Under the pieces are notes generated by a model that searched no databases, was not told the origin of the DNA, and saw nothing but the letters and a program-made list of their open reading frames with translations. From NCBI GenBank assembly GCA_016215315.1, contig JACRKG010000054.1, positions 1 to 64,000 on the forward strand: a stretch of 64,000 nucleotides of DNA, written 5' to 3'. This document shows positions 21,118 through 64,000 of this stretch, in pieces. The number at the start of each line of letters is the position of its first letter. The first letter of the stretch is position 1. This stretch comes from Candidatus Woesearchaeota archaeon. Its GTDB lineage: Archaea > Nanobdellota > Nanobdellia > Woesearchaeales > ARS49. The translations under genes and the position numbers were made by a program.

Positions 21118-21180
21118 ATTTCTTCAAAACAATACTTTTTTAAACAAAGAAAACCAAACTGTAAACTAAAAGAGGAAAGC

Positions 21181-21855: not shown

Positions 21856-21857
21856 AA

Positions 21858-21935
21858 TAGTTTACAGTTTGAAGTTTGCAGGGTTATCTTCAGATATCAG
21901 TTACTGTAAACTGTGAACCGCAAACTGTAAACCAA
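21858..21935. repeat. Heptamer-periodic hairpin repeat element
   Basis: TTTACAG TTTGAAG TTTGCAG GG - 20-nt loop - CTGTAAA CTGTGAA CCGCAAA CTGTAAA CC. Confidence 0.7.
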
Positions 21936-22024
21936 TTTTGAGTCATTATCGGTAGTTGAATAACAAAAAATCCTTCTAAGTACATAAATATTTATAAACA
22001 AAAACACCTTAAATCAAATAAAAA

Positions 22025-26346: not shown

Positions 26347-26788
26347 TTCTTAGGTATTACGATACCAGGATGTTTATAAACACTTAGGTATTCTGATACC
26401 GAAACATTTAAAGACTAATATCGTTTAAATCATAACAATTTTGTCATTTTGTTGATACTAAAGTAGTATACTTTACTATCAACTATTCAAATTTTTCTAT
26501 TCAAAGAAAACGAAATTACTCCTTTAGAGATAAAATATCAAGAAAAAATATCCTGCAATTCCAATACACCAATTATTGGCGTTGCTGAATTAGTTTGCAC
26601 GTAAAAGACTTATCAGTATCATCTCTAGCTTGGCTGGACAAATTGTTCGGCTGCCAAAAAAGAACAAAAATAAGCAAGCAAATAAGTCTGGCAGCCGCTA
26701 GGGGAAAATTTTCCTTGAAAACGATAAAATAGGTGAAAATAATTCTTAAAAACGCTTAACCTTCTTTTCGACGGTGCAGAACAGCAAT

Positions 26789-26797
26789 ATTTATAAA
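26789..26797 (+). promoter_or_regulatory. candidate TATA box for the giant-gene operon
   Basis: ATTTATAAA lies about 130 nt upstream of the 26919/26931 start. The hairpin repeat element at 26848-26910 would then lie in the 5'UTR. Confidence 0.3.
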
Positions 26798-26847
26798 CAA
26801 AAACTCCTAAAAACAGTTATAAAAGGGTGTTTAAGGGATTTAACGGG

Positions 26848-26910
26848 TTTACAGTTTGTAGTTTGCAGTTTATAGTCCCGTAAACCGTAAACTTTGAACT
26901 GCAAACTAAA
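26848..26910. repeat. Heptamer-periodic hairpin repeat element (best copy)
   Basis: TTTACAG TTTGTAG TTTGCAG TTTATAG - tcccg - TAAACCG TAAACTT TGAACTG CAAACTA. Ends 9 nt before the giant gene start. Confidence 0.7.
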
Positions 26911-26918: not shown

Positions 26919-29900
26919 GTGTATGATGTAGTGAACAAAAGAGTGATAGCATTGTTCGTAATAGTATTATTTCTAAACATCACATTAGTTTCAGCACTAC
27001 CAGTTTGGCTTGAATGGATGCTAAAACTACCGAGCATAACTGGAAAACAAGTATTTCAGCAACAAACTTGTCCTTCTGGTTATTCTCCAGTTAAAGATAA
27101 CAACCAATTGATTTATGCGGCAAACTGCCAAACAACTGACTCAGGAATAATGGGCAATTTATACTTAGGAAATAATCCTCAGTTGTATACTCCCGAAGGA
27201 TTTGTACTGGCAGGACTAGTAGATTTTGCATGCACCCCTGAAATAACAGAAAGAACTGAAACAATTTGCGGTCCATTTGTAGGAAATTCAGAAATGGGAG
27301 AACCATTGTCTTTAGTATGTCAAAAATCAATTTCTTGTGAAACAACACAACAACCACCAACGACTCCACCAGTAGAAACCCCACCAACAACAGATCAACC
27401 GATACAACCCTGTTCAGGAGTAGAATGTCCTGCAGGAAAAATACTTAACACAGGAACTTGCTCTTGTGAATGTGCTTTGACAAATGCAATATGTAAACAA
27501 AACTTAAACAATAATGATGCATATGCAGATCTAACAGCTTGCTCTTGCAAAATAAATGAAACACCTCCCCAAACATCAGAAAATTTATGCCCTTCGGGAG
27601 GAACTGTTGAAGCACTTGCAGATACTTGCGAAAAATATGGAAGTTGCCCAACACCACAAATAGCTTGCGGAGTAAAATTTACGGGTTATGGATCATCAAC
27701 AGCATTTGAATGGGGACCTCAATGTTTAGATAAAACAAAAATAACTTATTATTGCGGAGCAACAAACAACGAAGGAAAAACAGCAATCTGCCAATTAGAA
27801 AACGCATGTGGAAACAACGAAATTTGCATTCAACAACCACAAGAAAATCCAACAAATGTTTATTGTAGTGCTCCAGAAAGTGCTTGTCCTCTAGAACCAG
27901 GAGCAGAAGAACCTTGTCAAGAAAAAAACAAAGCAATAAGTATTCAATTTCCGCCAGGTTCTGAAGTCTTAGACAAACCTTACTGTGATAACTTATGCCA
28001 ATTATCTTATTGTTATCAAACGAGCGATAAAAAAATTACAATAGCAAAATCTCCTGGAAAAGAGGAACAGTCAAGAGAAAATGGTAAAGCATATGATGAT
28101 TCTGGCAAAGAAACAGGAACAGATACAGAAACTTGTTATACTTGTTCATTCTATTCATCGGGAGACTTCCAACCAATTGCTTGCCCAATATCTGAAGTAG
28201 CTTGCAATAATAACAATGTAGCGCAATTAGGAGAAGAATGTGACGGAACAGACTTAAAACAAAAAAATTGCAAAGACTTTACTCAAAGCACAATACTGCA
28301 ACCTTTCGACGGAGGAAAACTAAAATGTGACACCGCTTGCGATTACAACACAAATGAATGCTATGTTTGCGGCGATGGATCAATTGACGGACCAGAACAA
28401 TGTGACATCAATGAAGCGGGACAAGAATTTGGTTGCGATCCAGGATGGTTCTGCGGAGTACAATCAGGGTTAAGATGTCAATGCATTCCTCCAATTATTG
28501 AATCAACAAAAGAATCCTGTCAAAAAGCAGGAGTATCCACGACATTAATCAAAAAAGATCCACCACTAGCTTACACATATACTGATGGAATCAAACCATC
28601 ACTTGAAGAAGCATTCAATCAAGCACTACTAGAAACAACAGGCACACTAAAATCAGAAGGAATAGAACTAACAAATCCATCAACAGACTTTGAAAATATT
28701 TGTTTTAAATGCAACATAGAAGGAGAAGCACAAACGGGTGACGATGTAAGTAGAAAAGTATTCGCTGATTATTGTGCACCAGTAGAAAAAGTAAACCTAA
28801 AAACAGCATGCATCCAAGAAGCAAACGGAGTAACATTCCAACAAAAACAAAACGAAGATGTAAAAGAAGAAACAAAATATCCAAACAAAGCAAGACCAGA
28901 AATAACAAAGAAAGAAGGAAGAAAATTAAGCTCGCCAAAAAAATTCAGCAATCAAGAATTCTCTCAATCACTCAATATTCCAACTTCAGAAGTTTCTAGT
29001 GTAGACTTAAACAATGTCTGTTGGGCTTGCGGAATACCAGACACAAGTTACAGTTTACTGGGAGGAAAATTTTCAACGTCAGGTCAACAAGGAGTAACTT
29101 CACAAGCATCATTAGTTCCTGTGAGAATTGATTGTCCAATAATAGAAAAAGCTGAAACGAATTGCTGTATTAGAAAAGATGATGAAGGAAAAATTGTAGA
29201 ACGTGCTTTAGTTGAGGGTAAATGTCCAGAAAAATTACCAATAAAAGATCCAACTGGAGAAGCTTGCAAAATTATTGAAAAAGGAAAACAAGTTTGTTGT
29301 CTAGTTCCTCCTGTTCCTGAAAAGAATATTCCAGAAAATTATGTTTGGAAAGAAAACTCGTGTGGAGAACTAAAAGAATTCCCAGAACAATATTGTAATC
29401 CAATTAAAAGATTAGCTTGTGAGATATGTCCTTCTTGTGATAATGCAATAGGAGGTTTACCTCAAGGAACTCCATCACAAAGCTTGCTTTTAGCAGATCC
29501 TAAAGGAATCATTGGAGAAGGTGATGAAGAACAAAAACAACCCAAATGCGGTGACGGAGTAAGAAATGGAAAAGAAGATTTTGATCCAGGAATGGCAGTT
29601 GTTAATGCAAGAAAAGAATCAGAAAACGGAGCAAGAACTCAAACAATTTGTCCAGTACAAGAAGGATCAACAGGTTCTCTAGTAACAAACCAATGGGATG
29701 ATCACTGCAAAAAAATAGGTTTAGGAACACAATTCAACATTAACACGTGCAAATGCGAAGGCACAACAGAGCTATCAACATCACAATCACAACAACAAAT
29801 TAAAACAAATTGTGAAGTTTACAAACCATCAACAGAAAAAACAGAATTACCACAACTAGAATTACTAAAAAAAGAATATATTAGTTTTGCTCCAGAAAAA

Positions 29901-32900
29901 CAAATAGAACAAATCCCGAGCATACAAAGCACGATATTAATACAAAAAGACTATGTGCTAAGCAGTGATGGCCGCTTCAAAAAAGAAAAAACTCTCGAAC
30001 AAATAGAAGAAACATCCAAAAATATAAAACCAATAACAGGAAAGTTCATAATAACTGGATTCCAAACAGCAGAAATAACAACACCTAAATTAATCAAAAC
30101 AATAGACAACGTTGACGGAAGCAAAACTTTAGAATTCAGCGATGGATCAAAAAAAGTTCTGACAGAAACTTATTCCAAAAACGACCTAGGACAATTAGTT
30201 AGAGATCACTTTACAAAAACAGTAATAACAAAAGAAGGCAAAACAATACAAAGAAAACAATTAATTAACGGCGAAATAGAAGAAACATATCCGGACAAAA
30301 CAGTAATAAGGTACAAATTAACTCCAGATAAAAAATCACAAGTAACATTCCAACAATTTACTAATGATAAAGGAAAAACAGTAAAGTTAAGCTATGAATA
30401 CCTTCCTGACAGCACAAGAAAAAGAATAAGCGACACTGATAGCAGTTCTGCAATCCAAGAACCATTCATTAACGAAAAAGGAGAACAGGAATGGAGAAAC
30501 AAAAAAGAAACCGATGCATTTGGCAGAACATTCTCTTACGACTACAAAAAAACCAAAATCAATGGAGAAGAAAAAGAAGTAACCTTAGTAAAAAATGAAG
30601 CAGGACTAATAGTAGAAGCATTTTATGATGAACAAGTTCAAAGAATTAATGTTGACTGCGAAGAAAAAGAAAAATTAAATTGCAAAAAACCAGAAGAAAG
30701 CAATTACGAAAAAACAGATTTGGGCGGCGGATTATTACAATTCAAGAAAAAAATTCAAGAAGGAGAAAAACAACACGAATACACATGCAAACTAACCAGC
30801 ACAAAAATATTCTCACAACCAGAATGCTTAATGACTTATGAAAAAACACAATTAGATGACGGAACAATAAAAGAAAGCATATACGAATACCAAGGCGACA
30901 GCACTTACAAAATAATAGACAAAAAAGATCCAAGAGACGTCTCAGTCATAAAATACGTTGATGGAAAGCCAAAAACATTAATGGCAACATCAATAGATGA
31001 AGAAGGAAACGCAGTAGGTTACTATGTGAAAGAGCAACAAGATGGTTCTCAAGAACTAGATTTCTTTGACGGAAGAACAAGAAAATTAAGCAAAACAAGA
31101 GAAACAACTTCATTCACAAATGAATTTGGCGATGAAACATTCTTATTAGGAAAAAATAAAGAAGGAAAAGAACAATTCAAACAAGTAAGTAGTGATGGAA
31201 AAACAACAATCTATTATGAAGAAGACAGTCAAGATGCTGAAGGAAAAACAAAATATTTCACATCAAGAACAGAAATAAAAACAGAAAAAGGAACAGAAGT
31301 AATAAGCAGAGAAAAAACAAAAGACGGCCTAATTAAAGAAACACGAGCGGATTCGACTGGCGCTGTAACAATTTTATTCTTCAAAGAAGGAGAATCAGAT
31401 CCTAAAAAATATCAAACAATAGACGAATGCGGAATAGACTCAGGAATAATAGAAACAACAAAAGATCAAGAAAAACCAGAAACAATGACGCAACCTTGTG
31501 AAACTGAAGAAGTGCAATCTCAAGTTGATTTCACAAAACTAAGTGATACAGAAAAAGACAATTATTGCAAAGATAGGAAATCAAAAGATCAACAAAAAAA
31601 TGAAGAATCAAAAAAGGCAAAAGAGCTAAAAGATATATGTGTTTACGAGCTAAAAAATAACAATTACCGAATAAATGAAATAGATAAAAAAGATGGAAGC
31701 AAAGAAAAATATGAATACTTCAATTATGAAAGTAATGAATTAACAAAAATAGAATACACTGGCGGGCCAAGAGATGGAACTTATTTAATTCTGGCAAACG
31801 CAGAAGATGTCAAAAACGAAAAAGGAGAAACAGTCAATGACAAATATGGATCACCAAAAAAATTACAAGTAGTGCTAGAGTCAAAATCACTGATTGATGG
31901 ACAACCAAAAATATATTGCACAGCAAACTTAGCGGACGGAAGCAAACTACAAGTAGAAAAAGGTAAAGGAATCATAAGCCAATACTCTTACTTAAACCCA
32001 GAAACAGAAAAAACACTCAAAAATCTAGGACTAATAGAAGAAACAATAATAGAAGAAACACTAATAGAAAAAACACTAATAGAAGAAACACCCAAAAAAG
32101 GTCCAGCATCATTCACAACAAAAACTCAAGTAATAACACAAGAAAAAACAACTACTACAACAAGAGAACCACTAACTAACGGAAATATTTTAGTGAGAGC
32201 AGTTGATGACGATTTAAGAAACTCGAATTTTGCTCATCTACTTTACGAAAAATACTTCAACAAAGAATGTGTAGGTACTGAAGTAATAAAAGAAGAGCAA
32301 AAATCAGAAGAAACAGAGCAACCAAAAATAAGTCTGAGCGCAGGAAGAAATCAAGCATCACAAAGCTCACAAAAAATAGCGCAAACACTATTAGGCGGAG
32401 GAAAACCAACAGGCCCAGTTAATCTAGGAGATGTATTAGGAACACAAAATCCAGTTTCTTGCGTAGCAAACACACTCAAAAGTTTAAGCGAAGATAAAAC
32501 AGAAACTCCAGAACCAAAATTCTTATACCAAATAATCAAGCCACAAAAAGAAGAAGACTTAGTATTAAGACAAGCATTTGAAGTAAATGGAGAAGAACAA
32601 ATCACTGATTATGTTTACCCAGAACAAAAAAAGAAAACTAGCTACACGAGAGTAAATGTTAAAGAAAAAACGTGGACTCAATTTAATGAAAAAGATGAAG
32701 CTCAAGAATTCTTATCAAAAACAGAACAAGGATACCAATTAACATCTTACGGAGATTACGGCGGACTAACTAAATTATGCGAGAAATTGGACGAAAAACA
32801 ATACCAAAATCCTCTAGCAGAAAAAGTAGACATGACACCAATACAATTATGTAAAGAACAACCAGAACTTTGCTTAGCAGGAAGTTGTCCAGAAACATAC

Positions 32901-35900
32901 GAATCAGTATGCGGTAAAGATGGAATAACCTACAAAAATGAATGCTTAGCAAAAATAGCAAAAGCAGATATTGAAAGAAAAGGAGAATGTCAATGTCAAG
33001 ACTTAAAAAAATTAAAACCAGGAACAGAAGTAGTATGCGAAGACCAAAAGCCAAGAACAACATGTACAACAGATCAAGACTGTAATTCAGAAGGAACAAA
33101 AACATGCGGTAACGGAAAAGAATACTATGAAAAAACATGCAAAGAAGACAAAGAAGGAAATAAATTCTGCATTCCAAATCCAAACTTAGCAACAATCTGC
33201 ACCAACGCAGAATGTCCTCCAGTCCAAACAAGCAATAATTGTCCAACAGGAACGCTATCAAAAGAAATACGTTACGAAAATGGCTGTTTCGCAGGAACAC
33301 AATGCATAAGCCCAGGACAACCACCAATAATTCCAGACTCCAAACAATGTCCTCAAGTAGCAATACCAACACCAATAACGGGATACAGAATAATTCCAAA
33401 ATTTGACAATCAAGGCTGCCTAGTAAACGCAGACATGATTGGAGAAGAACAAATAACAGGAATGGCATCTGAAGAATTAGCAGAACTACAAAACATAAAA
33501 TTACCAACAAAAGAAACAGACAAAGAAAAAACTGCAGAAGCATCATTAGAAAAGCCAAGTGAAGAACTTAATGGAGTGAAAGACAGAGAAATAGGAGATG
33601 GTTGCAACCAAATAAGTATTTGTGACAATGGCGAAATATATCATCCATACTTGAAAAAAGAAAATAGTTGCATTCAAAACCCATTAACAATATGCAATTC
33701 ACCGATTGCAACATACAAAACAAACTTAGTCAAATCTTGCAATGACAAAGATAAAGACGGAAGATGTGATATCAACAATGACAACAAAGAAGATGCAATC
33801 ATAATCAGAAGAAGCAATGATGTTATAGAAACAGTGGAAATAAATTTTGGAAGCAAAGATAACGACTTTGATAATGACGGAATACCCGACTGGTTAGACA
33901 TAGACAAATACGGTACTGGAAAAGCATTCACTAAACCAACATATTCTTTAGACTCACCTCCAGAAGACAGAGATAATGACAAAAATAAAGATGTAGTAGA
34001 ACTTTTATTGGCAAGCCAATTATTCGAAGCAGGACAAGGATACAATTTTGAACAAGACAAAAACAACGACTTAATAACCGACAAAGAAGAAAATTCATTC
34101 AGCTCAATAAAAAACACACTAACAAGTTTTGCAGAACTAATACCCGGATACCTAATAATAAAAGCACCATTTACATTATCAACAAACTTAAAATTCACTC
34201 CAACAAGCATAACTGGAAGAATAATAAATGGAATAACAGGATTCTTTGTTGCACCACCAAATAACGGAGGAACAGGCAAACTCGCTCAATCACAACTAAT
34301 AGGCGGAGTGTGGATGGCAAACATAGAACATGCACCTCAACCATATGATTACATAATGAATGTTTATGACAACTTCAACAAAGTAAAACAACCAAACTTT
34401 GAAGCATTCAAAAAATACCAAAAAGAATACGTAGACAACATAATAGGAAATTTGAACGTAGACTTAGTTTGTGACAAAGATGGCTACAAATCATTCTTGG
34501 AAACACAAAAAAATAGCATAGTTGAACAAGTAATGGCTTCAGTAGAAGCAGTAAAAAAATCATTTGAAGACGCAGAAAAATTCTTAGACAGCGACTTAGA
34601 CATAGCATACGACAAACTAGCAGGAATCAATCCCGTTGAAGACTTAAAAAACAAACTAGAAAACTTCCAAGAAAATTATGAAAAAGCAAAACAAGAATTT
34701 GAACAAACAGGCGAAGCATACACAGGATCAAAAAATAATTTTAAAGAAATAAAAAACAAAATTAGCGATAAATTACAAGAATCAAACGAAGGAAGAAAGT
34801 TTATACATGCAATGGAACAATCAGAACTGAACGAAGTAGACACAGAAAAAACATTCACTAGTGAACAAACAGCACTAAGATTAGCACAAAATAATTATAA
34901 CCAAATAAGTCAATCAGTGGCAGCATGCAATCAAGCAAGAAAAGAGGGGCAAGGAAGTTCTTCCTGCGAAGCATTAGTCAACAAATTAAATCAAGCCACT
35001 ACTAGCTTGAACGCTGCAGAAAGACAATTAAGCGCATCACAAAAACGCGCACAAGGAGCATACCAACCACAAAGCCAAGAAAACTTACAAGCAGCATTCG
35101 ACAAACTACCTCAAAAGATCAAAGACCAATTCGGAAATACTTTTGCTAATTTTATGAGTGCAAGCACTCAAAACTTAAAAGCCACAATAGACTACATAAA
35201 CACCCAAAACTTTGGAAACTTCTGGTTTGGAAGCACAAAATTCAAACCAGAATTTGTAAGCTCAGCAGATCTACTTTCAAAAGGAACTCTAGAACAAGTT
35301 GCAACAACTAACCGAGATAGAATAGTTGAAAAAAACATAAAGGCAGAACTAATAAACCAAAGATTAGATGACACGCCAGAAAATAGAGCATCATTAAGAA
35401 AAATTGTAGAAAACAGTGAATGGTATGAAGAGATAACTAATGAAGTTGAAAACGCAAAACAAATACAACAAAAAGTTCAGAAAGGAGAAAAATTAACAAA
35501 AGAAGAACAAGACTTCGTTCAAAAAACAGCAAAAGAAGAAAACACAAGAACAAAAGAAGAAATCAACAAGAAAAAACAAGAAGTATTCGAAAAAAGAAAA
35601 GAAGAATTCTCTAAAGCACAAGAAAAATTAGACAAAATACAAAAATTTGATTTCCAAAAAGAAACCAACAACTTATACCAAGAAATAACTTCAGACTATC
35701 CAAGAAAAGTAAGCGATTTGATTGAAGGATTAGAAGATATCAGAACAAGAGCTCAAGAAATAATAAACAACAAAGAAAGTTGCCCTGCAGAAAATAAAGA
35801 CGCAATGAACCAACTACTAGCTCTTCTAGATTCAATGATTGACAGTATGGAGCGCAAAAAATCGGACTTATACGAATTCATAGACAAACACATTGAAGGA

Positions 35901-55100: not shown

Positions 55101-55899
55101 AAATGACCTCAAACCAGCACTTTCAGAAACAATTAGCTTATTAAATAAATACCAAGAAGGAGAAGACGTTTTAGACGATTTAAACTCACAAAGAAGAATA
55201 GTTGCTGAAAAATTAAGTCTATTATTCACCCACTTAATGCGCGCAGTAGCTACAGGAGGAGACGAAGGCTTAGAAATACAACAAGAAAACGAATACACTG
55301 TACTAAGAAACTTTTTAATAGGAATGTTAACTAACAAAAAAGTAATACCTGGAACAGGAATGGTAAAACTAGGCCTTGAAGGCGTAGAAGCAAACAACTT
55401 AGATAGTGCTAAAACAAGAAGCAAAGGAGCATCACTAGTTACTAAAATAATAAAAGTATTCGAAGAAGACTACGCAGAAAAATACGGCTACACGTACGGA
55501 GAAAGACTGGGAAAAGATAACGAAAAACTTTATGAAGAAGTAAGTGACAAAGTAATTAATTATTTCACGAGCGAAGTGGATTATTTAGTTAAACAAATAG
55601 AATCAGCAACAAGCATTACAGACTTAAACAAAAACGATCAAAAGAGACTGCAAAAATTATTACCTCAGCTCAATAATTTAGACGTCTGGGGTTATGCGCT
55701 AGGAATAAAAATCAATTCATTAATAGATTTGAGAAATAAACTAAGCCAAGCAATAGAAAGAAAAGGATGGAGTTCAAACTTAGGCTTAGATACAGACCAA
55801 TTAGAAGAAGCAGTAATAAGTGAAGATGAAGATTTGTTCCCCGAACTAATTGATGCAAGAGGGATTGAGATTTCTGGCGCAGAAGAAATATGCAAATAA
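52096..55899 (+). CDS. giant secreted protein (1267 aa) with kinase-like (possibly pseudokinase) domain
   Basis: Overlaps the upstream stop by 10 nt. Signal peptide. Glycine loop plus beta3 Lys: IGEGAHGIVFKV and VIKLF at about 53100-53190. A second N-lobe-like segment KPGVYKAKTEDKTYIIKVYE. No clear HRD/DFG was seen. Confidence 0.65.
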   Translation: MQLKKIIITILAILIILQVVVAARTACERYTDDEFFVKQKLEEKGLPTTKALINLVQTAVSFRVDEQRNTPWLERIKKYFGKLVTKQEKTLDDVILETDQKLRIGDDSFIKARTKFKQSLSKLAPEKPRTFSEHQFTDLVLIEEVNKEGKTIPVEKKVANFQKPGVYKAKTEDKTYIIKVYESETQAAQDKKSLTVLKQIEGIPLINDFVRDQDNAKIGLVIEDLPSISESETQDIKGEFFEKLEKLFLDLSLKNKYTPKNILGIPIKVKNGRPYLNPFDLNKGDLNEEFLQKRLDSLKKAIIRFGTHKLSNEGTFYLNNRISVEGIKEIPAENIQVLDKIGEGAHGIVFKVLIEEKLHVIKLFKQDPYLTETELINNILEEYDKAKIIQGLDLGPEIAGLTIINGIPALVIEYVDSIDPQTASYDELKEIVNEETLKEYQDAIPAKLNKEGYFMTDYQGGILKEDQFINGKLRKKGEVLILDAASLEKIIPQVTTEEDLELMKESANIENLMSTKEKTKNINGILETFVKESKEKVASVKNNEKSLDSLLELRGTYSELPEEGIDSLERMLGDGIKKPLSQLKPGKILRISSASTSIDLKNLNDRSGGHAKADLVKNYGAFRPLNEFLKTVLGYTRTGAFQKTLMAVKSEETETTRGRPYRIYEGYGYKVTVYEAKEDGELINKLNEKFEEIKKRKVTTDGGEIEVGDVLSAVLKEYFVKIEGKVPENVLDQISMDVYKTLTVARHYQTLKNEKVGSYTDEEIDNYVIEKHEEYKTADETRKKEIEDELAELFDSFPLTEDGSIMSVEQTKEELNKLIKQIEDETTLLKIAEGEKRSELLISLSREIIKLTELERTIRRKSTGHPKFPTKATGKAFAATIDNDAEYIIRYSPVLGGVTGIKGYYASTDVHDVGKENTNQNKIEIIENLLSKPQINKEDILKTRRMIGKERDKQIGGVYLLLIGHPEVLTKEFFTDNSKFTSEMLKKLNNFLNSNQWNSREINDLKPALSETISLLNKYQEGEDVLDDLNSQRRIVAEKLSLLFTHLMRAVATGGDEGLEIQQENEYTVLRNFLIGMLTNKKVIPGTGMVKLGLEGVEANNLDSAKTRSKGASLVTKIIKVFEEDYAEKYGYTYGERLGKDNEKLYEEVSDKVINYFTSEVDYLVKQIESATSITDLNKNDQKRLQKLLPQLNNLDVWGYALGIKINSLIDLRNKLSQAIERKGWSSNLGLDTDQLEEAVISEDEDLFPELIDARGIEISGAEEICK

Positions 55900-57042
55900 T
55901 CAGTTAACAAAAAAGGGAACATCTGCAAACTTAAGAAAAAAAGGATTGCCAGAATTCTTTGCAGAACTAAGCTCATTCAAATAACACGTTTCTGTTTTTC
56001 CAAGCATTTCTCTTCTCGATTGATTTTTTAATCCGTACTTTTTATACCATTCACTTGTTTGCAAGTATTTATCATAATCAACATCTAAAACTTTTTTTTC
56101 TTTTTCATTCAATCCTTTCAAAAAGTCTTCATACTTTCTTTCTCTGCAAACATCCTGTTCTGAATTTTTCCATAATGGTCCTTTCCAAATCTTACTGTAA
56201 ACACCCTGCAAAGCAAACCTTAAAGCATCATTAAATAAATCTCTCTCAAAATTAAAAGTTCTTATAGAATTATAAAAAAAAGGCGCTTCGATATCTTGAT
56301 TGTTGTAAGTTTTAAATTTTCTTCTTTTTTCATTCTTTAAAAGAATTTCTGCAATATTTTGTAAGTGAAAGAAAATTTGTAATTCCTCCTCAAAACTGTC
56401 GCTATCAATACTTGCCAAATTGACAAAATATTCGCTCAAAGATTTAAGAGAAGGATTTGATCCTGTGATAAACGGAATAACTCTTTGCTCAAAACAATCA
56501 GCAACACTACTAAATTCTCCATCATTCTCCATAACAAGCTCTAAAACAAAATCCCCTGCATTATCTCTTGCATTTTCTAAAAAAACTTTTCTTATTCTGT
56601 AAACGCTAAAATTTCTAGACAAATCCCCAACATTAATTCCTGCCGCAGCACAAGCAGAATTCAACTTAGCACTCATACCAACCCCCGTTTCTTTAATGAC
56701 TAATTTTCTTTTATCATAAAGCTTAAGCATTCTGTGAAGCAAAAAATGAGAAGCTCTACTAATTTCTTTTGCTGGTGTTACGTCATCCAAATTTTTTGCT
56801 AAAAGCATTAAAGGAAGATAAACTCCCTCATAACCCATGCCCACTTCACTACAATCACCGAAAACTGCTGAAGGAGCTATAACAAACTCTTTTTTACTAT
56901 TAGAATCAAAACCAAAATTTCTAACTTCCAACTGCTTAGTTAAAACCTCAAGAGTGGGTTTATCACAATCAATACAGTAACTAGTATTATTAACCGCAAA
57001 CTGTTCCATAAAAGGTTTACGAAGTAAACCTTTAAAAAACAA
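55900..57042 (-). CDS. hypothetical protein (380 aa), unassigned; faint GHMP-kinase-like Gly/Ser-rich segment
   Basis: Complete ORF convergent with the giant operon. The segment IKETGVGMSAKLNSACAAAGINVGD weakly resembles a GHMP P-loop. Assignment not secure. Confidence 0.35.
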   Translation of the reverse strand: MFFKGLLRKPFMEQFAVNNTSYCIDCDKPTLEVLTKQLEVRNFGFDSNSKKEFVIAPSAVFGDCSEVGMGYEGVYLPLMLLAKNLDDVTPAKEISRASHFLLHRMLKLYDKRKLVIKETGVGMSAKLNSACAAAGINVGDLSRNFSVYRIRKVFLENARDNAGDFVLELVMENDGEFSSVADCFEQRVIPFITGSNPSLKSLSEYFVNLASIDSDSFEEELQIFFHLQNIAEILLKNEKRRKFKTYNNQDIEAPFFYNSIRTFNFERDLFNDALRFALQGVYSKIWKGPLWKNSEQDVCRERKYEDFLKGLNEKEKKVLDVDYDKYLQTSEWYKKYGLKNQSRREMLGKTETCYLNELSSAKNSGNPFFLKFADVPFFVN

Positions 57043-57255
57043 ATTGGCGAATACTAATAATATAAGAAATATTTTCTATTTGTTCTGACACAAAATCAAG
57101 ATGTATTTAAATAAGATCGATATTACTAAAGTCGTTCTTAGTTATTTTGAATATCTTTCGGTTTTTAATCCGCACATTTATTGATTAAATTCGGCTTATG
57201 ATACGATAGTTGCTACTTCTAGTTTGCAGTTTGAAGTGAATATACCAATTCTGTT

Positions 57256-57289
57256 CATTACTAATGCACACTATTGTTCATTAGTAATG
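57256..57289. promoter_or_regulatory. twin 11-bp palindromes CATTA-N-TAATG (candidate operator) upstream of the fourth giant gene
   Basis: CATTACTAATG at 57256-57266 and CATTAGTAATG at 57279-57289, 23 bp centre to centre, 120-155 nt upstream of the 57411 start. Confidence 0.4.
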
Positions 57290-57410
57290 AAAACTATTAT
57301 TTTTACTATGTGGAAACAATTCTTCTTTTCCGACGAAAAAAACAGGAAGATTTATAAAGAAAAACATTACAAAACACTTGAAAAATAGAATAAAAAACGA
57401 GGGGTTATTA

Positions 57411-60400
57411 TTGAGTAAAAAGCTACTGTTAATACTAGTAGTACTAGTTCTAGTTCCAACACTAATTCATGCACAAGGATTCAGTAAGGGATACTGTGTA
57501 GTGAATCCAGATTTTAGTGATTTAAGAAATACTTTAAGCGATGAAAACATCAAAAATGCTTTAGCTAAAGCATCATTGGAAAAACAAACCACCATAGAAA
57601 TAACCGACGCAAGAGTGATACATCAAAGAACTTTAGCAGTACAAAGCATTCTTAACCAAGAAAAAACTCCAAACATGCTTTTTGAGGATTTAGAAACAGA
57701 TCAAAAACTCAAATTGGGTATTAAAAGTTTGATAGAACAAATCTCGAATTATCCTCTTGAAAATTCTGTTTGGAAAACTATTGGAGAAAGACTCTATGAA
57801 TTAAACCAAAGAGATTCTAACACCATTGAAAAATTCAAGTCTTGGATGAGTGAACTAAAAAGCAAAATAGAAGGTTTCTGGCCTTTTGGAAAAGACGCAG
57901 CAAGAACACAACTAAGTAATTTAGAAAAAATATTGGAAGCTTACGAAAAAAAAGAAAGAATTGAAGACTTAAAAAATGGTGTTTTCAAAGAAAAAGAACT
58001 AAAAGGAAAAATCAATCAAGCAGTATACAAAGAATACAATTTTGAAAAAGCAAGAAGAATAATATCAGAATACAAAGGAAAAGTGAAAGATGAATTTCTT
58101 GAAGAAATGCTTAAAACTTTAGATAAAGTAGAAGTGGGATTCTTTGATTTACCAAGAGCTTTGTTATTCTTTGGTGAGCAACAAAAAGATTTTAACAGCG
58201 TCATTCTAGAAGGTGAAGGAATGACTGTTGGTCGTTTAGCAAACAACAATTTAGTATTTAGCGATAATTTTGTTTCAGGAAAACACGCGAGATTGTTTTT
58301 AAAAGATGGCAAAACACACATTACTGATTTAGGATCTACCAACGGAGTTTATGTAAAGAAAACAGGAACACAAGAATTTGAAAGAATAAATTCAAACACG
58401 CCAATAGAACTAAACGATGGCGACGAAGTAAGCATTACGCCTTTAAAAAATGGAATTATTTTCAAAATAAACACATTTCATCTCAAATTAAACGAACTAC
58501 TAAAACAAAACGATATTGAAGGAGCAAAAAAATTAATCAATGATGAACTAGAAAAAGGACAAATAAACACGGAAAGCCTATCCAGATTCTTTGCAAAAAT
58601 AACAGGAAAAGAAAAAGCATTACCGGAAGAAGAAATAAAACCTGAAAAGAGGATTACTCCTGTAGTAATACAAAAAGTTCCTGCATCGCCTTTAGATCAT
58701 GACAATAAATGGGCTTCTTTAGTTGGAATAATACCAGGACTAACTGAAGAATTAGAGCGAGACTTTAAGTTTGGAGGAATGATAAACGAGTGGGGTAAAG
58801 GAGAGTACAAACACGAAAAGTCAACAGAAGGCGGAGGAACTATGGAGCTCACCCCCGCAAGTGAAGAAGAATACAAAACATTCCAAGAATGGAAAAAATA
58901 CAATTATCTGCCCGAACTCTCTCTTTCTGAAGCTAGAGAAGAATTAAGAAAACTAAAAGCGCTATTAAGTAAGCACGAGATAACTCTGGAATTCACAGAA
59001 AATCTTGAAGATTTTGAAACTAATGAAAAATCAGTAATTCACTTATCATCAAAAATAAAAAGAATAAGACAATTACTAGAATTACTTCCAGACTCAATTT
59101 TAGACTTAGGCACACTAGAAAGAATAACTCTTGGAGGGTATGAAGGAGTTGGAGGCGCAAAAGGAAGCGCATTCAATTCACAATACAAAGAACTTCAAAT
59201 ACTACAATTCGCATTATCTGGACCAGAAAGAAACTTAGACGCATTAGTATTACACGAATCGGGACATGCTTTGGCAGTTTCTTTAACACAAAAAGAACGT
59301 GATGAATTAAGACAATTACGAGAAAAAATATCTCAATCAGATTTTTTCACTTTTGATTATGGTCTAGGAAAAGAAGAAAGAGCTGGAAGAATGAGTGATT
59401 CATTAAACGAATTCCTTGCAGAATCATTCATGCACTACACATTACAAGGAGAACAATTAAGAAAACATATTGAGAATTTAGAAAAAACAAAACCGAGTGC
59501 AGGAAAAGCATACAGCGAATTATATAATTTCTTAAAACAAAAGTTCGATGGAAAAGAATATGGGGTCAAAAAAGTAGCAGTACCACGGATAAAAACAAAA
59601 GCAGACTGCCAACCAACAAGAAGCGCAGGATGCGTTTTATCAAATGTTTTAAATCCAACAAAAACAGCAGGAGAGCTCGAAAATTTTGTTAAAGAATTCG
59701 GTATTGAAGAAGGAAAAACAACTCCTCTTGAAGTAGAACCAAAAATAATAATAACCCCCGAAACACAAAACTTACCACAAGAAGAACAAATAGGAACAAT
59801 AGAATTCACTGCAAATGTTCCGAGTGAGAAAGCAGATGAGTTCGAAATATTTGTAATTAAAAAAATTTCTGAGGAAAAAATTCTAATTCCTCCAGAGCAA
59901 AGAACTGAAGTAAAAGAATTTGAATTTGTCAAAGCCGGAGCAGTTTTGGAACCTGTTGAAGGAGTTATTGCATTAGACGCGGGTAACAAACAAGTGCCTG
60001 GGGTAATAGACCATCATCATATTATTGGGAGTGAAAGAGCAGCAACTGGAACAGTACTGGATAATCCTCAACTAATAATTGATTGGCACAACAAAAAGCC
60101 AATCACTAAATTAACTTCTCACGAAAACCCCGACTTTGATTCAATAACATCCACTTACTTAGCAAAATACTTCTTACAACACGGAGAATTTCCAGAAGGA
60201 GCAGAAGTATTGGCTGCATATGTTGACTTAGTTGATTTCGGAAGATTGCCTAAAGCACAAAATATGGAAAACACTCCTTATGGAGTCATGACTGGCATAC
60301 TATTTGCTTATAGAGGATATTTTGATCCAGCACAGAAAAAATTTATACCAAACAACGATAAAAGACTAGAAAAAGGAATGGAATTCATAGACTTCTTACT

Positions 60401-63400
60401 GAAAAGAATCCAAGAATTAAAACTAATCAATTTAGCAGACGAATATCAAGCATCAAAAATATTTGAAAACACAGAATTAAATGATGACATAAAAAAATCT
60501 AAAGATTACATAAAACAAGACCAAGAAAGCTTCAAACAAGACTTTGAACGTGCCAGAAAAGAAAAAATAATTCTTAAAAAAGAAACTGGGCAAACAATAA
60601 CTACTAATTTTGTATTTTTAGAAAACCCCGAAAGCGCGTTATTCAAAGAATACTTTAGAGGCTTAGGATACTCTGTGATGAATATTTATTTCTCAAAACA
60701 AGATCCAACAAAGCCAGATTCACCAAACATAAGAAGATTTGTGATAAGCACAGACCCTGAAACAAAACTACAACTAAAAGGATTGGGAGAAATAATAGAC
60801 AAAGCAGAACAAAAAGCAAGAGAAGAATTAATTAAAGAATTAGAAAAAATAAAGTTTTTCGAAGAAAAACTTGAGAAAGCAAAAGAAGCCTTAGGCAGCG
60901 CAGTAGAAACTTCTTTTAACTCATTAATTAAAGATAAAACATTAACAGAACAAGAAAAAATCAATTTACTAATACAATTAATAGCAAGAGCTGGAGAACC
61001 AAGACCGGGCTACACAAATGCAGATCCATGGTATGACGGAAGAGGCCACAGTTACACAATAATAGACACACCAAGAACAGGCACAGCAATAAGCAAAGAA
61101 CAAATGGATCAAATACTTAGCGAATACAGTAACAAAAATAAAGAAGAAAAACCAGAAGTTCCAGTACCAGTAAACTGCCAAGGAGGACATAGCGTTGATT
61201 GCAGTTTAGACCTGAGTTCTTTCAAAATTGACATATCAAAATTAGTTGAAGACAAAGTCTTCAGAGACGCAATTGAAATTTTTGCTTCCAGCAAAGATTA
61301 CCCCTTAGAAGAACCTTACAAAACACACTTAAGAGAATTAAATGCAGAAGGAAACAACTTAGTAGTTATACTAAACGTTCCTTCAGAACTAAAAGATAAA
61401 GTCGCTAGCGACTTTAAAGAAGCAATAAGGTTAGGACTATTTGATCCATTCCTCAAACCAGAAATAAAATCAGAAATAAATTTCAAAGGATACATAGAAT
61501 TAATGAAAAGGTACAGAAACTTATTTTCAGATGATTACTTGTACACTACAAGACTAAAAAACTTAAAAGAAAAAGGAGAAACCACACAATTGCAAATTTG
61601 GCAAAATTTGCAGGGAAAAAGAAAACTAGACGAATTACAAAAATTAAGAACGCGATTCCTAAAATATTTACTAAAAGAAGAAAATGAAAATTCTAACAAA
61701 ATAGCAGAATTATTCTATGTTGCATTAGGATATGGCGTGAATGTTGATCCTGAACTAGCAGAACTATTCTTACAATCACTAAAAGATGCAGGCGTTAGCC
61801 TGCAACAAAAACAATTAATACAAAAACTACTAAATCACAGACTAAGAGAAGAAAGAGAATATTATCAACTACCTCCAGAACAAAAATTAATTCTAATAGA
61901 ACTAAGAAATCAAGTACAAGAGTTAGAAACACAAAAAGAAACACCATCAACATTATCTCCTGAAGAATACATCTTAAGCATAGGACTAGAACAATTGCTT
62001 GAACCTAAAATAGTTGATGTTTATCATGAACGCTTCCGTAAAATATTTTTTGACGATGAAGAATACAACCAATTACTAGGTGAAATCAAAAATTTAGTTG
62101 AGAAAAAAGAACAACTAGACATATCATGGTCACAACTGCTACCGCTCATAGAAAATATTCTAGCAGGCAGAGGAAACACTTTAACAATAGTTGATCAAAA
62201 AACAAAAGAACAAAGAGAACTAACATCACAAGACTTAACAGATGAAGAAACACTAAAAGCAATATCAGAAGGAAAAATAAGAATCAACGGAAAAATATTT
62301 GATCAATACGTTGCAGATGTAAGAGAAAAACTCAGCAAAGAAGAAGCTGACAAAATAAATCAAGTAGGGAAAACGGAGTTCTCTCAAGAACAAATAAGAT
62401 TCAGACTAGAAATAAGAAGAAGACTATACGAATTAAAAAACAAACTCGACCTGATAAGAACATTATCTGAATTCATAGATAATAATTCTCCGCACAGATT
62501 ATTATACAATATTGAAGAAGAAAGATATTCTCAAATCGAAAGAAAATATGAAGAACTAAAAAACAGACTATTGACAAAAGCATTCGAGTTCCTATTACAC
62601 GAATCTTTTGATAGAAAATTACTAAAACTAAACAATTTAGAACTCAAAAGTTCTTTAATCAATTGGTTCAAAGATGAAATCAAACAAACATACAAAGAAT
62701 TTTATGACGACAAAGAAAAACAAGAATTCACCAACAGAATAACCGACCAAGAAATACAAACAATAAACAGAATAGAACAAGTAAGACAAAAAGGATATTA
62801 CGAAACAACAGAACAAGCCTTAGGTGATAAAACAGCAAGACTGCAATTCGGAAAAATTAGCTTGCCAATACCTTTGATTAGATTGTCTGTAGCTAGAGAA
62901 ACACTAATTCAACACAGAGTAGAAACTGACTCATTCATTGAGGACCAAAACGAAGTTTTAGCAAGACTCGATTCACTAAGAACACTTCTAGGAATAGAAA
63001 GAAAAGCAGACTGCGAAGGAGTGGCAAGCGCTTATTGTTACAGAAGAACAACGAAAGCACTAACAACAGAACAACTTCTAACTGCAAAAGAAAAAGCAAA
63101 AGAAGGCATGGACGAATTAGTGAGCGAAGGAAAATTATCCCAAGATGACAAAGAAGCAAGCGAATGGGTTGACGAACCAGAACAATACGGAACACTACTA
63201 AAACTAGTATTTAATGTCAAGAAGAATAAAGCAAAAGTAGTTCAAGAAAAAGAAGAAATATCTCCTGAGCAAAAATTCAAAAATCCGACAAGCAAAGCAG
63301 TCTTTAAAGAGCTTCAAGACTATATAGAAAAATTATTTGCAGACAAGAAAGTAATAACTGTTAATGGAGAAGAATTATCCAAAGAAACAGTGTTATCTAG

Positions 63401-64000
63401 AACAATAAAAGCATTGCTCGATCTAGAATCTGAACCTTTACCAACTAAAGTAGAAAATTACAATGTCAATTCAATCCCTAAACTGCCAGGTCTAAGGAAT
63501 TTGTACATTGAAGCGAGCTTAGAAGTTAGCAAAGAATCCTTGCGTCAAGAACTAGAAAAACTCAATGAACGAATAGAAAAACAACAAGGTCTCCTTGGCC
63601 AAATGCAAGAATTTCACGGAGGCTTCTTCAAATCCATCCTTTATTTCTTCACAGGAAAACCTCAAGAACTTGTTAAAGCAACTAAGAGTCTAGAAGATCT
63701 AAGAAATTTCAGAAAAGTGCAGGAAGCAGGATTGAGCGCATTTGAAAAAGAACTGGAGAAATTAAAAGCAGTGAGTGCAGAGAAACAGCAGGTTTCTCCA
63801 TGCAGTTCCTGCACAACAACAGTTGCAGGCTGGGCTGTTAAGAGTAGTAATAAAGATTCAGCTTTCAAGATTAGTTTTGAAAAAAGAAAAGGCTGGATTT
63901 ATTTAGGAATTGCTCATTATGATCAAGTATTTGATAAAGAAAATGAAGTTAGGTTAAAGAGTTATATTTTTGCCAGCGGAGCACCGCCTGAAGAAGTAGA
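57411..64000 (+). CDS. giant secreted protein, partial (>2190 aa, runs off window): FHA domain + HExxH zincin-like motif + coiled-coil
   Basis: No + strand stop from 57291 to the window end; only short minus-strand ORFs overlap it. TTG start at 57411 (or 57378). Signal peptide SKKLLLILVVLVLVPTLIHA. FHA signature GMTVGRLANNNLVFSDNFVSGKHARLFLKDGKTHITDLGSTNGVYVK at about 58190-58480. LHESGHALAV (HExxH) at 59262-59279 with a downstream Glu. Confidence 0.7.
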   Translation, partial: MSKKLLLILVVLVLVPTLIHAQGFSKGYCVVNPDFSDLRNTLSDENIKNALAKASLEKQTTIEITDARVIHQRTLAVQSILNQEKTPNMLFEDLETDQKLKLGIKSLIEQISNYPLENSVWKTIGERLYELNQRDSNTIEKFKSWMSELKSKIEGFWPFGKDAARTQLSNLEKILEAYEKKERIEDLKNGVFKEKELKGKINQAVYKEYNFEKARRIISEYKGKVKDEFLEEMLKTLDKVEVGFFDLPRALLFFGEQQKDFNSVILEGEGMTVGRLANNNLVFSDNFVSGKHARLFLKDGKTHITDLGSTNGVYVKKTGTQEFERINSNTPIELNDGDEVSITPLKNGIIFKINTFHLKLNELLKQNDIEGAKKLINDELEKGQINTESLSRFFAKITGKEKALPEEEIKPEKRITPVVIQKVPASPLDHDNKWASLVGIIPGLTEELERDFKFGGMINEWGKGEYKHEKSTEGGGTMELTPASEEEYKTFQEWKKYNYLPELSLSEAREELRKLKALLSKHEITLEFTENLEDFETNEKSVIHLSSKIKRIRQLLELLPDSILDLGTLERITLGGYEGVGGAKGSAFNSQYKELQILQFALSGPERNLDALVLHESGHALAVSLTQKERDELRQLREKISQSDFFTFDYGLGKEERAGRMSDSLNEFLAESFMHYTLQGEQLRKHIENLEKTKPSAGKAYSELYNFLKQKFDGKEYGVKKVAVPRIKTKADCQPTRSAGCVLSNVLNPTKTAGELENFVKEFGIEEGKTTPLEVEPKIIITPETQNLPQEEQIGTIEFTANVPSEKADEFEIFVIKKISEEKILIPPEQRTEVKEFEFVKAGAVLEPVEGVIALDAGNKQVPGVIDHHHIIGSERAATGTVLDNPQLIIDWHNKKPITKLTSHENPDFDSITSTYLAKYFLQHGEFPEGAEVLAAYVDLVDFGRLPKAQNMENTPYGVMTGILFAYRGYFDPAQKKFIPNNDKRLEKGMEFIDFLLKRIQELKLINLADEYQASKIFENTELNDDIKKSKDYIKQDQESFKQDFERARKEKIILKKETGQTITTNFVFLENPESALFKEYFRGLGYSVMNIYFSKQDPTKPDSPNIRRFVISTDPETKLQLKGLGEIIDKAEQKAREELIKELEKIKFFEEKLEKAKEALGSAVETSFNSLIKDKTLTEQEKINLLIQLIARAGEPRPGYTNADPWYDGRGHSYTIIDTPRTGTAISKEQMDQILSEYSNKNKEEKPEVPVPVNCQGGHSVDCSLDLSSFKIDISKLVEDKVFRDAIEIFASSKDYPLEEPYKTHLRELNAEGNNLVVILNVPSELKDKVASDFKEAIRLGLFDPFLKPEIKSEINFKGYIELMKRYRNLFSDDYLYTTRLKNLKEKGETTQLQIWQNLQGKRKLDELQKLRTRFLKYLLKEENENSNKIAELFYVALGYGVNVDPELAELFLQSLKDAGVSLQQKQLIQKLLNHRLREEREYYQLPPEQKLILIELRNQVQELETQKETPSTLSPEEYILSIGLEQLLEPKIVDVYHERFRKIFFDDEEYNQLLGEIKNLVEKKEQLDISWSQLLPLIENILAGRGNTLTIVDQKTKEQRELTSQDLTDEETLKAISEGKIRINGKIFDQYVADVREKLSKEEADKINQVGKTEFSQEQIRFRLEIRRRLYELKNKLDLIRTLSEFIDNNSPHRLLYNIEEERYSQIERKYEELKNRLLTKAFEFLLHESFDRKLLKLNNLELKSSLINWFKDEIKQTYKEFYDDKEKQEFTNRITDQEIQTINRIEQVRQKGYYETTEQALGDKTARLQFGKISLPIPLIRLSVARETLIQHRVETDSFIEDQNEVLARLDSLRTLLGIERKADCEGVASAYCYRRTTKALTTEQLLTAKEKAKEGMDELVSEGKLSQDDKEASEWVDEPEQYGTLLKLVFNVKKNKAKVVQEKEEISPEQKFKNPTSKAVFKELQDYIEKLFADKKVITVNGEELSKETVLSRTIKALLDLESEPLPTKVENYNVNSIPKLPGLRNLYIEASLEVSKESLRQELEKLNERIEKQQGLLGQMQEFHGGFFKSILYFFTGKPQELVKATKSLEDLRNFRKVQEAGLSAFEKELEKLKAVSAEKQQVSPCSSCTTTVAGWAVKSSNKDSAFKISFEKRKGWIYLGIAHYDQVFDKENEVRLKSYIFASGAPPEEV

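Follow-up and report, generated by a model that had tools for sequence, protein, structure and literature searches.

What could a cluster of giant genes equipped with kinase, phosphatase, and phosphothreonine-reading domains be doing in an archaeon, and do its products work inside the cell that makes them or on another one? The question is raised by a 64,000-nucleotide stretch of Candidatus Woesearchaeota DNA (GenBank assembly GCA_016215315.1, contig JACRKG010000054.1, positions 1 to 64,000; hereafter, the window) in which four very long genes, here called A, B, C, and D, lie on the forward strand. A sequence-only reading of the window had proposed that these genes form one operon of secreted proteins, that they carry a kinase, a PP2C phosphatase, and an FHA domain for use on another cell, and that no archaeal system of this kind is known to have been described. 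We find that the cluster is real, conserved, and unusual. The interpretation that we favor, with a probability of roughly 50%, is that of a mosaic, multi-enzyme surface or effector system that would work at the site of contact with a partner or host cell or across it.

Do the four genes form a single transcription unit? The sizes originally given for A, B, and C, as well as the 13- and 10-nucleotide (nt) overlaps at the A/B and B/C junctions, are indeed those of the open reading frames (ORFs; coordinates are given in Table 1). For D, given as more than 2190 amino acids (aa), the frame is open from 57291 to the end of the window and encodes at least 2196 aa from a TTG start behind a GAGGGG ribosome-binding site, and both the start and the binding site are also kept in a second genome. 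What has to be abandoned is the idea of four consecutive genes in one operon: the space between C and D is largely filled by an antisense gene, X380, which makes D a separate transcription unit, and D also has its own promoter. An 18-nt TATA-like element, ATATTTATAAACAAAAAC, occurs in exact copies upstream of A and of the gene for a 1362-aa secreted protein, and a version with two mismatches, AGATTTATAAAGAAAAAC, lies 46 nt upstream of D. These copies thus mark three similarly promoted units (the 1362-aa gene; A-B-C; and D), and the shared promoter suggests co-regulation of the secreted-protein genes. In sum, A, B, and C make up an operon, after which come the conserved antisense gene and then D under its separate promoter. 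We reject the idea that the giants arose by chance or are pseudogenes, given open frames of 1267 to 5214 codons at 33% G+C and orthologs under purifying selection; the window as a whole is AT-rich (31 to 38% G+C).

The same gene order, sought in other genomes, was found in GCA_053533315.1 (contig JAIYNH010000020.1), where all five genes have pairwise homologs. In this syntenic locus, L003, proteins of 5970 aa, 2482 aa (with SpoIIE), and 2149 aa are followed by a minus-strand gene of 345 aa (plus another of 279 aa) and by a protein of at least 5609 aa. Identity is 24% for the C-terminal 700 aa of A, 28.6% over 2234 aa for B, 41% for C, 38% (E 9e-69) for X380, and 29% for the N-terminal 330 aa of D, which include the FHA domain. 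X380 lacks both a signal peptide and any domain recognized in Pfam and NCBIfam scans; since its L003 homolog is found on the minus strand at the same position, X380 is a conserved member of the cluster, and C and X380 are also found together on one 8.5-kb Logan contig. The A/B overlap is kept nearly base for base (ATGCGTAGGATAA in one genome, ATGCGCAGCATAA in the other), and the protein downstream of an overlap of this type always starts with MR[RS][IL]N. In the public records, the starts of these genes had been misplaced by gene callers, and once corrected, the orthologs regain signal-peptide-like N-termini. Between its antisense gene and its D ortholog, L003 also has two genes that are absent from the window, encoding proteins of 279 aa (17476-18315, minus strand; no Pfam match) and 73 aa (18550-18771, plus strand).

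Which parts of the proposed phospho-signaling set are present? Three of them stand on firm matches. The Hanks-type Ser/Thr kinase of B scores above the gathering score of Pfam Pkinase (PF00069, B 2907-2993: 35.7 bits in the whole protein and 40.0 bits in the excised domain, against 31.7), and its glycine-rich loop, lysine, catalytic loop, and DFG motif are all present. It has a long insert between the lobes, its APE/activation segment is not evident, and it also matches a serine-threonine kinase family in PHROGs. The phosphatase domain of B matches Pfam SpoIIE (PF07228, B 1769-1967) with 37.8 to 42 bits against a gathering score of 25 (E 1.3e-10 to 2.4e-9); its aspartate motifs are intact, the metal-binding motifs GGD, DATGHG, and SDGVTD are identical in the L003 ortholog, and between the orthologs no other part of B is as well conserved as this domain (69% nt identity over 991 nt). 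The FHA domain of D, with the arginine, Ser-x-x-His, and Asn-Gly residues of a phosphothreonine reader, matches Pfam FHA (PF00498, D 272-342) with 55.7 bits against 20.7 (E 6.7e-15) and NCBIfam FhaB (3.8e-15). Its best match in the PDB is Sulfolobus ArnA, which we take to be a cytoplasmic archaellum regulator. FHA domains likewise occur in the L003 relative and in L006, an ORF of more than 3925 aa on Ga0210057_1005586, from a different metagenome, and the D ortholog of L003 combines its FHA domain with three strong Pkinase domains and a 2H-SAK phosphoesterase. The kinase/PP2C/FHA toolkit is thus conserved, which strengthens the core of the original idea.

The likeness of this toolkit to the PpkA/PppA/Fha set of the type VI secretion system (T6SS) holds insofar as the three domains are present, but it is one of analogy, as there are no T6SS genes in the window. 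PpkA, PppA, and Fha1 are small cytoplasmic proteins that form a kinase/PP2C/FHA triad regulating a defined machine. As in the T6SS and in the Arn system (Sulfolobus ArnA/B and their kinases), the same three domain families are adjacent with their residues intact; unlike in both, they are embedded in giants with signal-peptide-like N-termini, whose length ranges from 1267 to over 5000 aa, in a window with neither T6SS nor archaellum genes.

The second kinase-like domain that had been proposed, located in C, is a truncated one. A profile built from C and three homologs matches about 276 PDB chains at E < 1, nearly all of them N-lobes of Ser/Thr kinases, and it also matches the archaeal RNA kinase TkArkI (E 4e-4). 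In all four members of the profile, the catalytic region reads DYQ or DFQ followed by IDAGSL, and the His-Arg and Asn residues of the canonical HRD..N loop are missing together with the whole C-lobe. Pfam FTA2, which is presumably a member of the protein-kinase clan, reaches 24.4 bits in C, below its cutoff of 30.2, and the same domain is present in three other proteins (P0006, P0007, and P0009). C also contains module M2, in which a GGDEF-like fold precedes a helical part where HPKF, DVHxxG, and GGDE motifs are conserved. The fold qualifies as that of a GGDEF domain, but the GG[DE]EF signature is degenerate, reading TGAFQK in all homologs. As there is also no Pfam match to GGDEF in C at E <= 1, we do not class C as a diguanylate cyclase; the M2 profile found nothing among PDB sequences.

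Other modules are recognized with varying clarity. The HD phosphohydrolase claimed for B has its H..HD..H..D motif residues, which are all invariant in P0009, a 3416-aa protein that shares 45.5% identity with B over 494 aa (48% in the alignment that shows the motif residues); nevertheless, Pfam HD (PF01966) gives 20.4 bits, just under the gathering score of 22 (E 6.6e-4), and a profile search of the PDB returned no HD protein. In D, a cassette with the motifs HxxPDxD, DHH, and GRGH resembles DHH phosphoesterases, and Pfam DHH (PF01368) reaches 19.5 to 20.8 bits against 28.1, covering motif I only. The HExxH motif is present in D at aa 615 and, although no Pfam family matches this region, it has a counterpart in L006 (HENFH, then EEFWADYF) in the corresponding position, immediately upstream of the shared DHH cassette; from composition, we estimate that about 0.1 such motifs would occur by chance in 11,800 aa. 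The superfamily 2 (SF2) ATPase core claimed for B is represented by motifs I, II, III, V, and VI (GKT[ST], DEA[HQ], M[ST]GT, TG.., and Q..RA.R.AGT), which are in the expected order and conserved between B and its L003 ortholog against a background identity of 28%. Read as motifs, they look most like SecA, which we take as a lead, but the region has no Pfam match at E <= 1, finds nothing in the PDB with the single sequence or a two-sequence profile, and aligns to E. coli SecA in hhalign with a probability of 0.7%, in the motif III region only. A single-sequence AlphaFold2 model of the region was unusable, with a predicted local distance difference test score (pLDDT) of 40.

Gene A is of another kind. 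It has 124 cysteines, concentrated in aa 1-1000 and 1800-2300, and its last 1550 aa contain a single one, at position -2 from the C-terminus. Its Kazal inhibitor domain, as proposed, is above the Pfam gathering score (Kazal_1, 24.5 to 26.4 bits against 21), and at E <= 1 it also finds 19 Kazal chains in the PDB, with a best E of 8e-4. The calcium-binding repeats, in contrast, come down to two DxDxDG motifs in A, with no Pfam match to TSP3 repeats at E <= 0.1. Besides the Kazal domain and these Asp-rich motifs, Pfam recognizes no domain in A, BLAST detects no internal repeats in the giants, and a scan of genome contigs with the C-terminal part of D gave no match.

Another possibility is that the giants form an extracellular scavenging array, which would mainly degrade or harvest nucleotides, RNA, phospho-compounds, or peptides from the surroundings or from a host, by means of the HD, DHH-like, 2H, PP2C, and zincin-like modules, to feed a cell unable to make nucleotides, with the kinase-like and FHA domains serving as binding or structural parts. 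Modules of the phosphoesterase type do recur (HD, DHH-like, PP2C, and the 2H-SAK of the L003 D ortholog), the GGDEF-like domain and the kinase-like domain of the C type have degenerate catalytic signatures, and published work describes DPANN archaea as limited in their biosynthesis. Yet, the Hanks-type kinase of B keeps every catalytic motif, three strong Pkinase domains are found in the L003 D ortholog, the phosphothreonine-binding residues of the FHA domain are kept, and the P-loop motifs are conserved between orthologs. Furthermore, there is no need to fuse scavenging enzymes into mosaics of 3000 to 5000 aa. Overall, we find this explanation quite unlikely.

How do such mosaics arise, and do they belong to the archaeal chromosome? 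The same modules are re-used in different orders among relatives. P0009, from a Rifle aquifer metagenome, combines a kinase with the HD module of B and the kinase-like domain of C, and its gene comes after that of an A-like, Cys-rich protein of 2599 aa; the L006 giant has FHA, kinases, HExxH, and the DHH cassette, with module M2 of C at its C-terminus. The DHH cassette is 89% identical (nt and aa) between 59874-61151 in the window and 3710-4987 in L006, over 1279 nt with sharp edges, whereas the other shared stretches have 63 to 69% nt identity. This difference, along with the sharp edges and a ratio of 74 synonymous to 45 non-synonymous codon differences, points to a recent lateral exchange of the cassette under purifying selection.

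Mosaic multi-enzyme architecture and cassette exchange are also what one would expect of polyvalent proteins belonging to an integrated mobile element or virus and delivered together with its DNA, and the kinase-like domain of C lacks a C-lobe, as does a kinase class found in polyvalent proteins (PMC5512222). The genomic context, however, is chromosomal and archaeal at three independent loci: the window has a Pelota/eRF1-like protein, TrmB, Lrp, and the alpha and beta subunits of archaeal PheRS; L004 has ribosomal L16 (Pfam family) and an M24 peptidase of the methionine aminopeptidase type; and L007 has a histone, FEN1, and PolB. In NCBI, both B (named SpoIIE family protein phosphatase) and C (MBI5066508.1, locus tag HZA97_09850, on a contig of 142,499 bp) are recorded as proteins of Candidatus Woesearchaeota archaeon. 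In addition, no integrase, capsid, MuF, or ArdC domain was found, scans for viral relatives gave only a generic kinase match in PHROGs and nothing in IMG/VR, and polyvalent proteins are not characterized by Sec-type signals at the N-terminus. We therefore consider a mobile-element origin very improbable.

Are the giants exported? A single hydrophobic segment is present in each of them, located N-terminally between K/R residues and a small-x-small site, with no later transmembrane (TM) segment; the charge is K/R before the helix and neutral or acidic after it. Their maximum KD15 values are 2.97 to 3.34, compared with at most 1.2 for the housekeeping genes of the window. The small-x-small sites are VSA followed by L in A (segment at aa 1-26), AAQA by C in B, VAA by R in C, and IHA by QG in D, and similar N-termini are found in the homologs P0006, P0009, L3_5609, L3_2482, and L4_2599. 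The claim of N-terminal Sec-type signal peptides agrees with these features of all four proteins, which are heuristic ones and do not separate a cleaved signal from a signal anchor. Two other types of signal can be discarded: the cysteine after the signal peptide is not in a lipobox (AQAC and RTAC in the giants, compared with IVAC, ISC, and LSC in the lipoproteins of the window), and the hydrophobic stretch is not preceded by the [KR]-[GA] site of class III (pilin-type) signals.

The distribution of cysteines bears on the same question. The many cysteines of A, together with its Kazal domain, speak for export. There are only four in B, two in C (C27 and C1266), and nine in D (one after the signal peptide and four pairs), and in these three proteins every cysteine is either terminal or part of a pair (Cx7C, Cx6C, or CxxC). 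This pairing is consistent with disulfides formed outside the cytoplasm. The pairs open a conserved, family-specific domain of about 110 aa that lies between enzyme modules. The Cys-poor giants have one cysteine after the signal peptide and another at -1 to -3 from the C-terminus, and this terminal pair is kept in the orthologs of B and C; bonds between such cysteines might loop each protein on itself or connect the giants head to tail. The C-terminal cysteine may also simply result from a TGC codon that overlaps the start codon of the following gene, as is the case in both genomes at the A/B and B/C junctions. In C and its ortholog, however, it is retained although no same-strand gene lies downstream. 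Taken together, these features allow us to infer, with good support, that the giants are exported.

If so, A would most likely be a disulfide-stabilized surface tether or adhesin, and B, C, and D would be polyvalent carriers in which small Cys-loop domains space the enzyme modules (Hanks-type kinases, truncated kinase-like, PP2C, HD, DHH-like, zincin-like, P-loop NTPase-like, and degenerate GGDEF-like). These would act at, across, or inside the contacted partner or host cell. For instance, the kinases might place phosphothreonine marks on proteins of the host or on the giants themselves, D would dock on these marks with its N-terminal FHA domain, and the PP2C domain would erase them. X380 could be a cytoplasmic helper, and we can only guess whether as a chaperone, an immunity factor, or a regulator. 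The exchange of cassettes between lineages suggests an arms race. Thus, the notion of a surface or effector system acting on another cell gains from the probable export of the giants and from the conserved toolkit, but export, the target cell, and phospho-dependent assembly are things that we infer.

Several observations weigh against this interpretation. Most of the more than 11,800 residues of A to D have no recognizable domain, the HD, DHH, SF2, and zincin calls are sub-threshold or based on motifs, and some modules may be non-catalytic, judging from the degenerate GGDEF signature of C and from a kinase-like domain without HRD and Asn. Kinases, P-loop NTPases, and nucleotide enzymes need ATP and metal cofactors that are scarce outside cells. 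The family is also very rare: an exhaustive HMMER search of 1.84 billion cluster representatives found six homologs of C, all of them long (1116 to 3575 aa) except for one 143-aa fragment, and scans revealed one related locus among 185,579 species genomes and one in JGI metagenomes. The two homologs with organism labels are assigned to Woesearchaeota and Nanoarchaeota, and the others from ENA, Logan, and JGI assemblies. Finally, the window shows no apparatus for secretion or translocation, and B, C, and D, being Cys-poor and rich in K, E, and L, have a composition that also suits cytoplasmic proteins.

The last two points, together with the ATP-dependent domains and with Sulfolobus ArnA as the closest solved relative of the FHA domain, would fit a different arrangement, in which only A is extracellular and B, C, and D are signaling scaffolds tethered to the membrane by their N-terminal helices, facing the cytoplasm. 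The kinase, PP2C, and FHA domains would then have a routine regulatory role within the cell, acting, for instance, on the envelope, on division, or on attachment structures. Nevertheless, from the charge distribution and the small-x-small sites, one would expect the C-terminal bulk of the proteins to be outside, and the strictly paired cysteines, conserved Cx7C loops, and terminal cysteines are also difficult to reconcile with such scaffolds, as is an operon and promoter organization that B, C, and D have in common with proteins that are clearly extracytoplasmic, namely, A, the 1362-aa Cys-rich protein, and an upstream TSP3 protein. On balance, we regard cytoplasmic scaffolds as unlikely, and we retain the exported surface or effector system as our preferred explanation.

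An extension of the exported system, which we offer as a long shot, is that the giants are covalently joined head to tail in gene order through their terminal cysteines, so that a multi-enzyme chain exceeding 14,000 residues would form outside the cell. The C-terminal cysteine of A would pair with the first mature cysteine of B, that of B with the first of C, and possibly that of C with the first of D. The Cx7C loops could then be nick-and-reduce release sites, comparable to those of AB toxins, from which kinase, phosphatase, and nucleotide-enzyme modules would be freed inside the host. Were this true, it would amount to an archaeal contact-dependent delivery of effectors without a dedicated secretion machine.

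How does the cluster compare with known systems? The literature that we searched contains no description of this cluster or of such a system, and to this extent the claim of novelty stands; giants of DPANN and Omnitrophota are, nevertheless, precedents. SPEARE and related proteins of Nanohaloarchaeota are DPANN giants of up to 9409 aa with an N-terminal Sec signal and a huge predicted ectodomain, for which host attachment and manipulation have been proposed, and they consist of Ig-like or fibronectin-like repeats, a part that spans the membrane, and a VirB4/TraG-like ATPase at the C-terminus (PMC10266531). The window giants, like SPEARE, are giant proteins of DPANN archaea, with a putative N-terminal Sec-type signal. 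Unlike SPEARE, they are non-repetitive, have no internal TM segment, carry kinase/PP2C/FHA/HD/DHH-like modules, and are encoded by a multi-gene cluster; Pfam finds no VirB4/TraG match in them, and no sequence relationship to SPEARE was detected.

The Archaeovorins of Omnitrophota are bacterial proteins of more than 10,000 aa from ultra-small, host-dependent or predatory cells; they are non-repetitive, have many TM segments and many regions predicted to be extracellular, contain many unrelated enzyme domains, including GGDEF but mainly glycosyl-transferase/hydrolase, methyltransferase, peptidase, and NUDIX domains, and have been proposed to attack another cell (bioRxiv 10.1101/2023.11.21.568195). 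The window giants are likewise non-repetitive strings of unrelated enzyme domains, but the kinase/PP2C/FHA set is absent from Archaeovorins. Polyvalent proteins, found in phages and conjugative elements, have header or processing domains such as MuF, ArdC-N, and MPTase (PMC5512222). They too combine unrelated effector enzymes in one polypeptide, with cassette recombination, a kinase lacking the C-lobe, and a delivery rationale. MARTX toxins are multi-effector proteins exported by a type I secretion system, with RTX repeats and a processing protease. In contrast to polyvalent proteins and MARTX toxins, the window giants are chromosomal and have putative Sec-type N-termini, and no MuF, ArdC, RTX, or CPD domain was found in them by Pfam and PHROG scans. 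Giant1 to Giant5 of Apilactobacillus kunkeei are extracellular proteins of 3000 to 8000 aa encoded by consecutive genes that take up a few percent of a small symbiont genome; they are bacterial, and the abstract of the report mentions no kinase, phosphatase, or FHA domain (PMC12863079). The cluster belongs to none of these families, whose defining features it lacks, and Archaeovorins and the polyvalent proteins of mobile elements are its closest functional analogs.

What, then, would such a system mean for its host? Little is known about the means by which DPANN archaea attach themselves to their hosts and exploit them and, to our knowledge, Woesearchaeota have not been cultured. A typical DPANN genome is about 1 Mb in size. 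The cluster takes up at least 37 kb of what is probably such a genome, or about 47 kb should D be as long as its ortholog (at least 5609 aa), and its gene order is conserved between lineages in which the proteins are only 24 to 41% identical and modules are exchanged. If the giants are exported effectors, this would be the first candidate for a host-manipulation system of Woesearchaeota built on eukaryote-like phospho-signaling domains. It offers concrete parts, namely, an intact kinase, PP2C, and FHA domain, a conserved cytoplasmic partner gene (X380), and an order of cysteines that predicts specific disulfides. It would also add an archaeal case to the emerging pattern of ultra-small symbionts and predators that invest in non-repetitive multi-enzyme giants.

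Table 1. Features of the giant-gene cluster and its surroundings, in window coordinates unless another locus is named.
Feature	Position	Strand	Remarks
Gene A	26919-42563	+	ORF of 5214 aa, GTG start
Gene B	42551-52105	+	ORF of 3184 aa
Gene C	52096-55899	+	ORF of 1267 aa
X380	55900-57042	-	Antisense gene, 369-380 aa
Gene D	57411-64000	+	TTG start, at least 2196 aa, cut by window end
A/B-type overlap	42551-42563		Also L003 2472-2484 and L004 ~9992-10004
TATA-like element	21988-22005	+	ATATTTATAAACAAAAAC, exact copy, upstream of 1362-aa secreted protein gene
TATA-like element	26787-26804	+	ATATTTATAAACAAAAAC, exact copy, upstream of A
TATA-like promoter element	57348-57365	+	AGATTTATAAAGAAAAAC, upstream of D
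Kazal-type domain, A aa 1978-2024	32850-32990	+	Pfam Kazal_1 (aa 1978-2020) and Kazal_2
Asp-rich stretch, A	33744-33908	+	Two DxDxDG (TSP3-like) motifs, aa 2276 and 2316, motif level only
P-loop NTPase-like region, B aa 420-1000	43808-45550	+	Ordered SF2/SecA-like motifs GGGKTS, DEAH, MSGT, TTGTD, QGVKRAGR
PP2C/SpoIIE phosphatase domain, B aa 1750-1970	47798-48460	+	GGD, DATGHG, SDGVTD
HD-type module, B aa 2055-2547	48713-50191	+	HD core ~aa 2130-2270; HSR, LHDVGY, YHGSD, LSDNLD
Cys-loop domain, B aa 2566-2692	50246-50626	+	Opens with C-x7-C loop
Hanks-type Ser/Thr kinase domain, B aa 2755-3020	50813-51610	+	GQGRFG (2765), VIK (2783), HGDTKPAN (2961), DFG (2981)
Small kinase-like domain, C aa 331-492	53086-53571	+	GEGAHG, VIK, then atypical DYQ / ILDAAS; no C-terminal lobe
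Module M2, C aa 502-1246	53599-55833	+	GGDEF-like fold ~aa 570-745, then helical part
FHA domain, D aa 263-342	58197-58436	+	GR, SGKH, TNG intact
Zincin-like motif region, D aa 600-690	59208-59480	+	LHESGHAL (HExxH at 615), then NEFLAESF
DHH-like phosphoesterase cassette, D aa 822-1249	59874-61157	+	SHENPDFDS, DHHH, GRGH
Three upstream secreted-protein genes	20341-26113	+	258 aa; 224 aa; 1362 aa
AGTTT[GA]NAGTTT repeat	15786-15804, 21156-21167, 21859-21877, 26853-26871, 26896-26907, 57221-57232
Vault-protein-like gene	3742-5493	+	583 aa
AAA_14 + DUF4143 ATPase gene	7585-8844	+	Upstream of giants
Three tandem lipoprotein genes	9117-14671	-	~300 aa each

Every plus-strand gene from 20341 to the end of the window, A to D included, encodes a protein with a signal-peptide-like N-terminus. 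Among the three genes upstream of A, which may be part of the same regulon as the giants, the one for the 224-aa protein has bacterial TSP3 repeats (TSP3_bac, 1.4e-21), and the 1362-aa protein contains 80 cysteines and has a sub-threshold match to DUF7107 (22 bits against a cutoff of 24.6). The heptamer-periodic repeat AGTTT[GA]NAGTTT has nine matches, compared with 1.3 expected and with no shuffle reaching nine; all copies are intergenic, and the majority of them flank secreted-protein genes. It was not found when we looked for it in related loci.

Three other groups of genes in the window deserve mention. The tandem lipoprotein genes encode proteins with lipoboxes (MKKIGILLIIGLLLIVAC..., ...FISC..., and ...VLSC...) and adjoin the genes for two membrane proteins of 512 and 397 aa, and none of these five proteins has a Pfam match. 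An ATPase gene of the AAA_14 + DUF4143 type lies upstream of the giants, and another, at 4427-5596 of the unrelated contig L007, precedes the homologous giant P0006 by about 2 kb; this shared neighbor may be a coincidence. Finally, the window contains a gene whose product strongly matches Pfam MVP_shoulder (2.9e-28), along with Vault_3, Vault, Vault_4, and SPFH/Band 7, and a vault-protein-like gene is unexpected in a DPANN archaeon.

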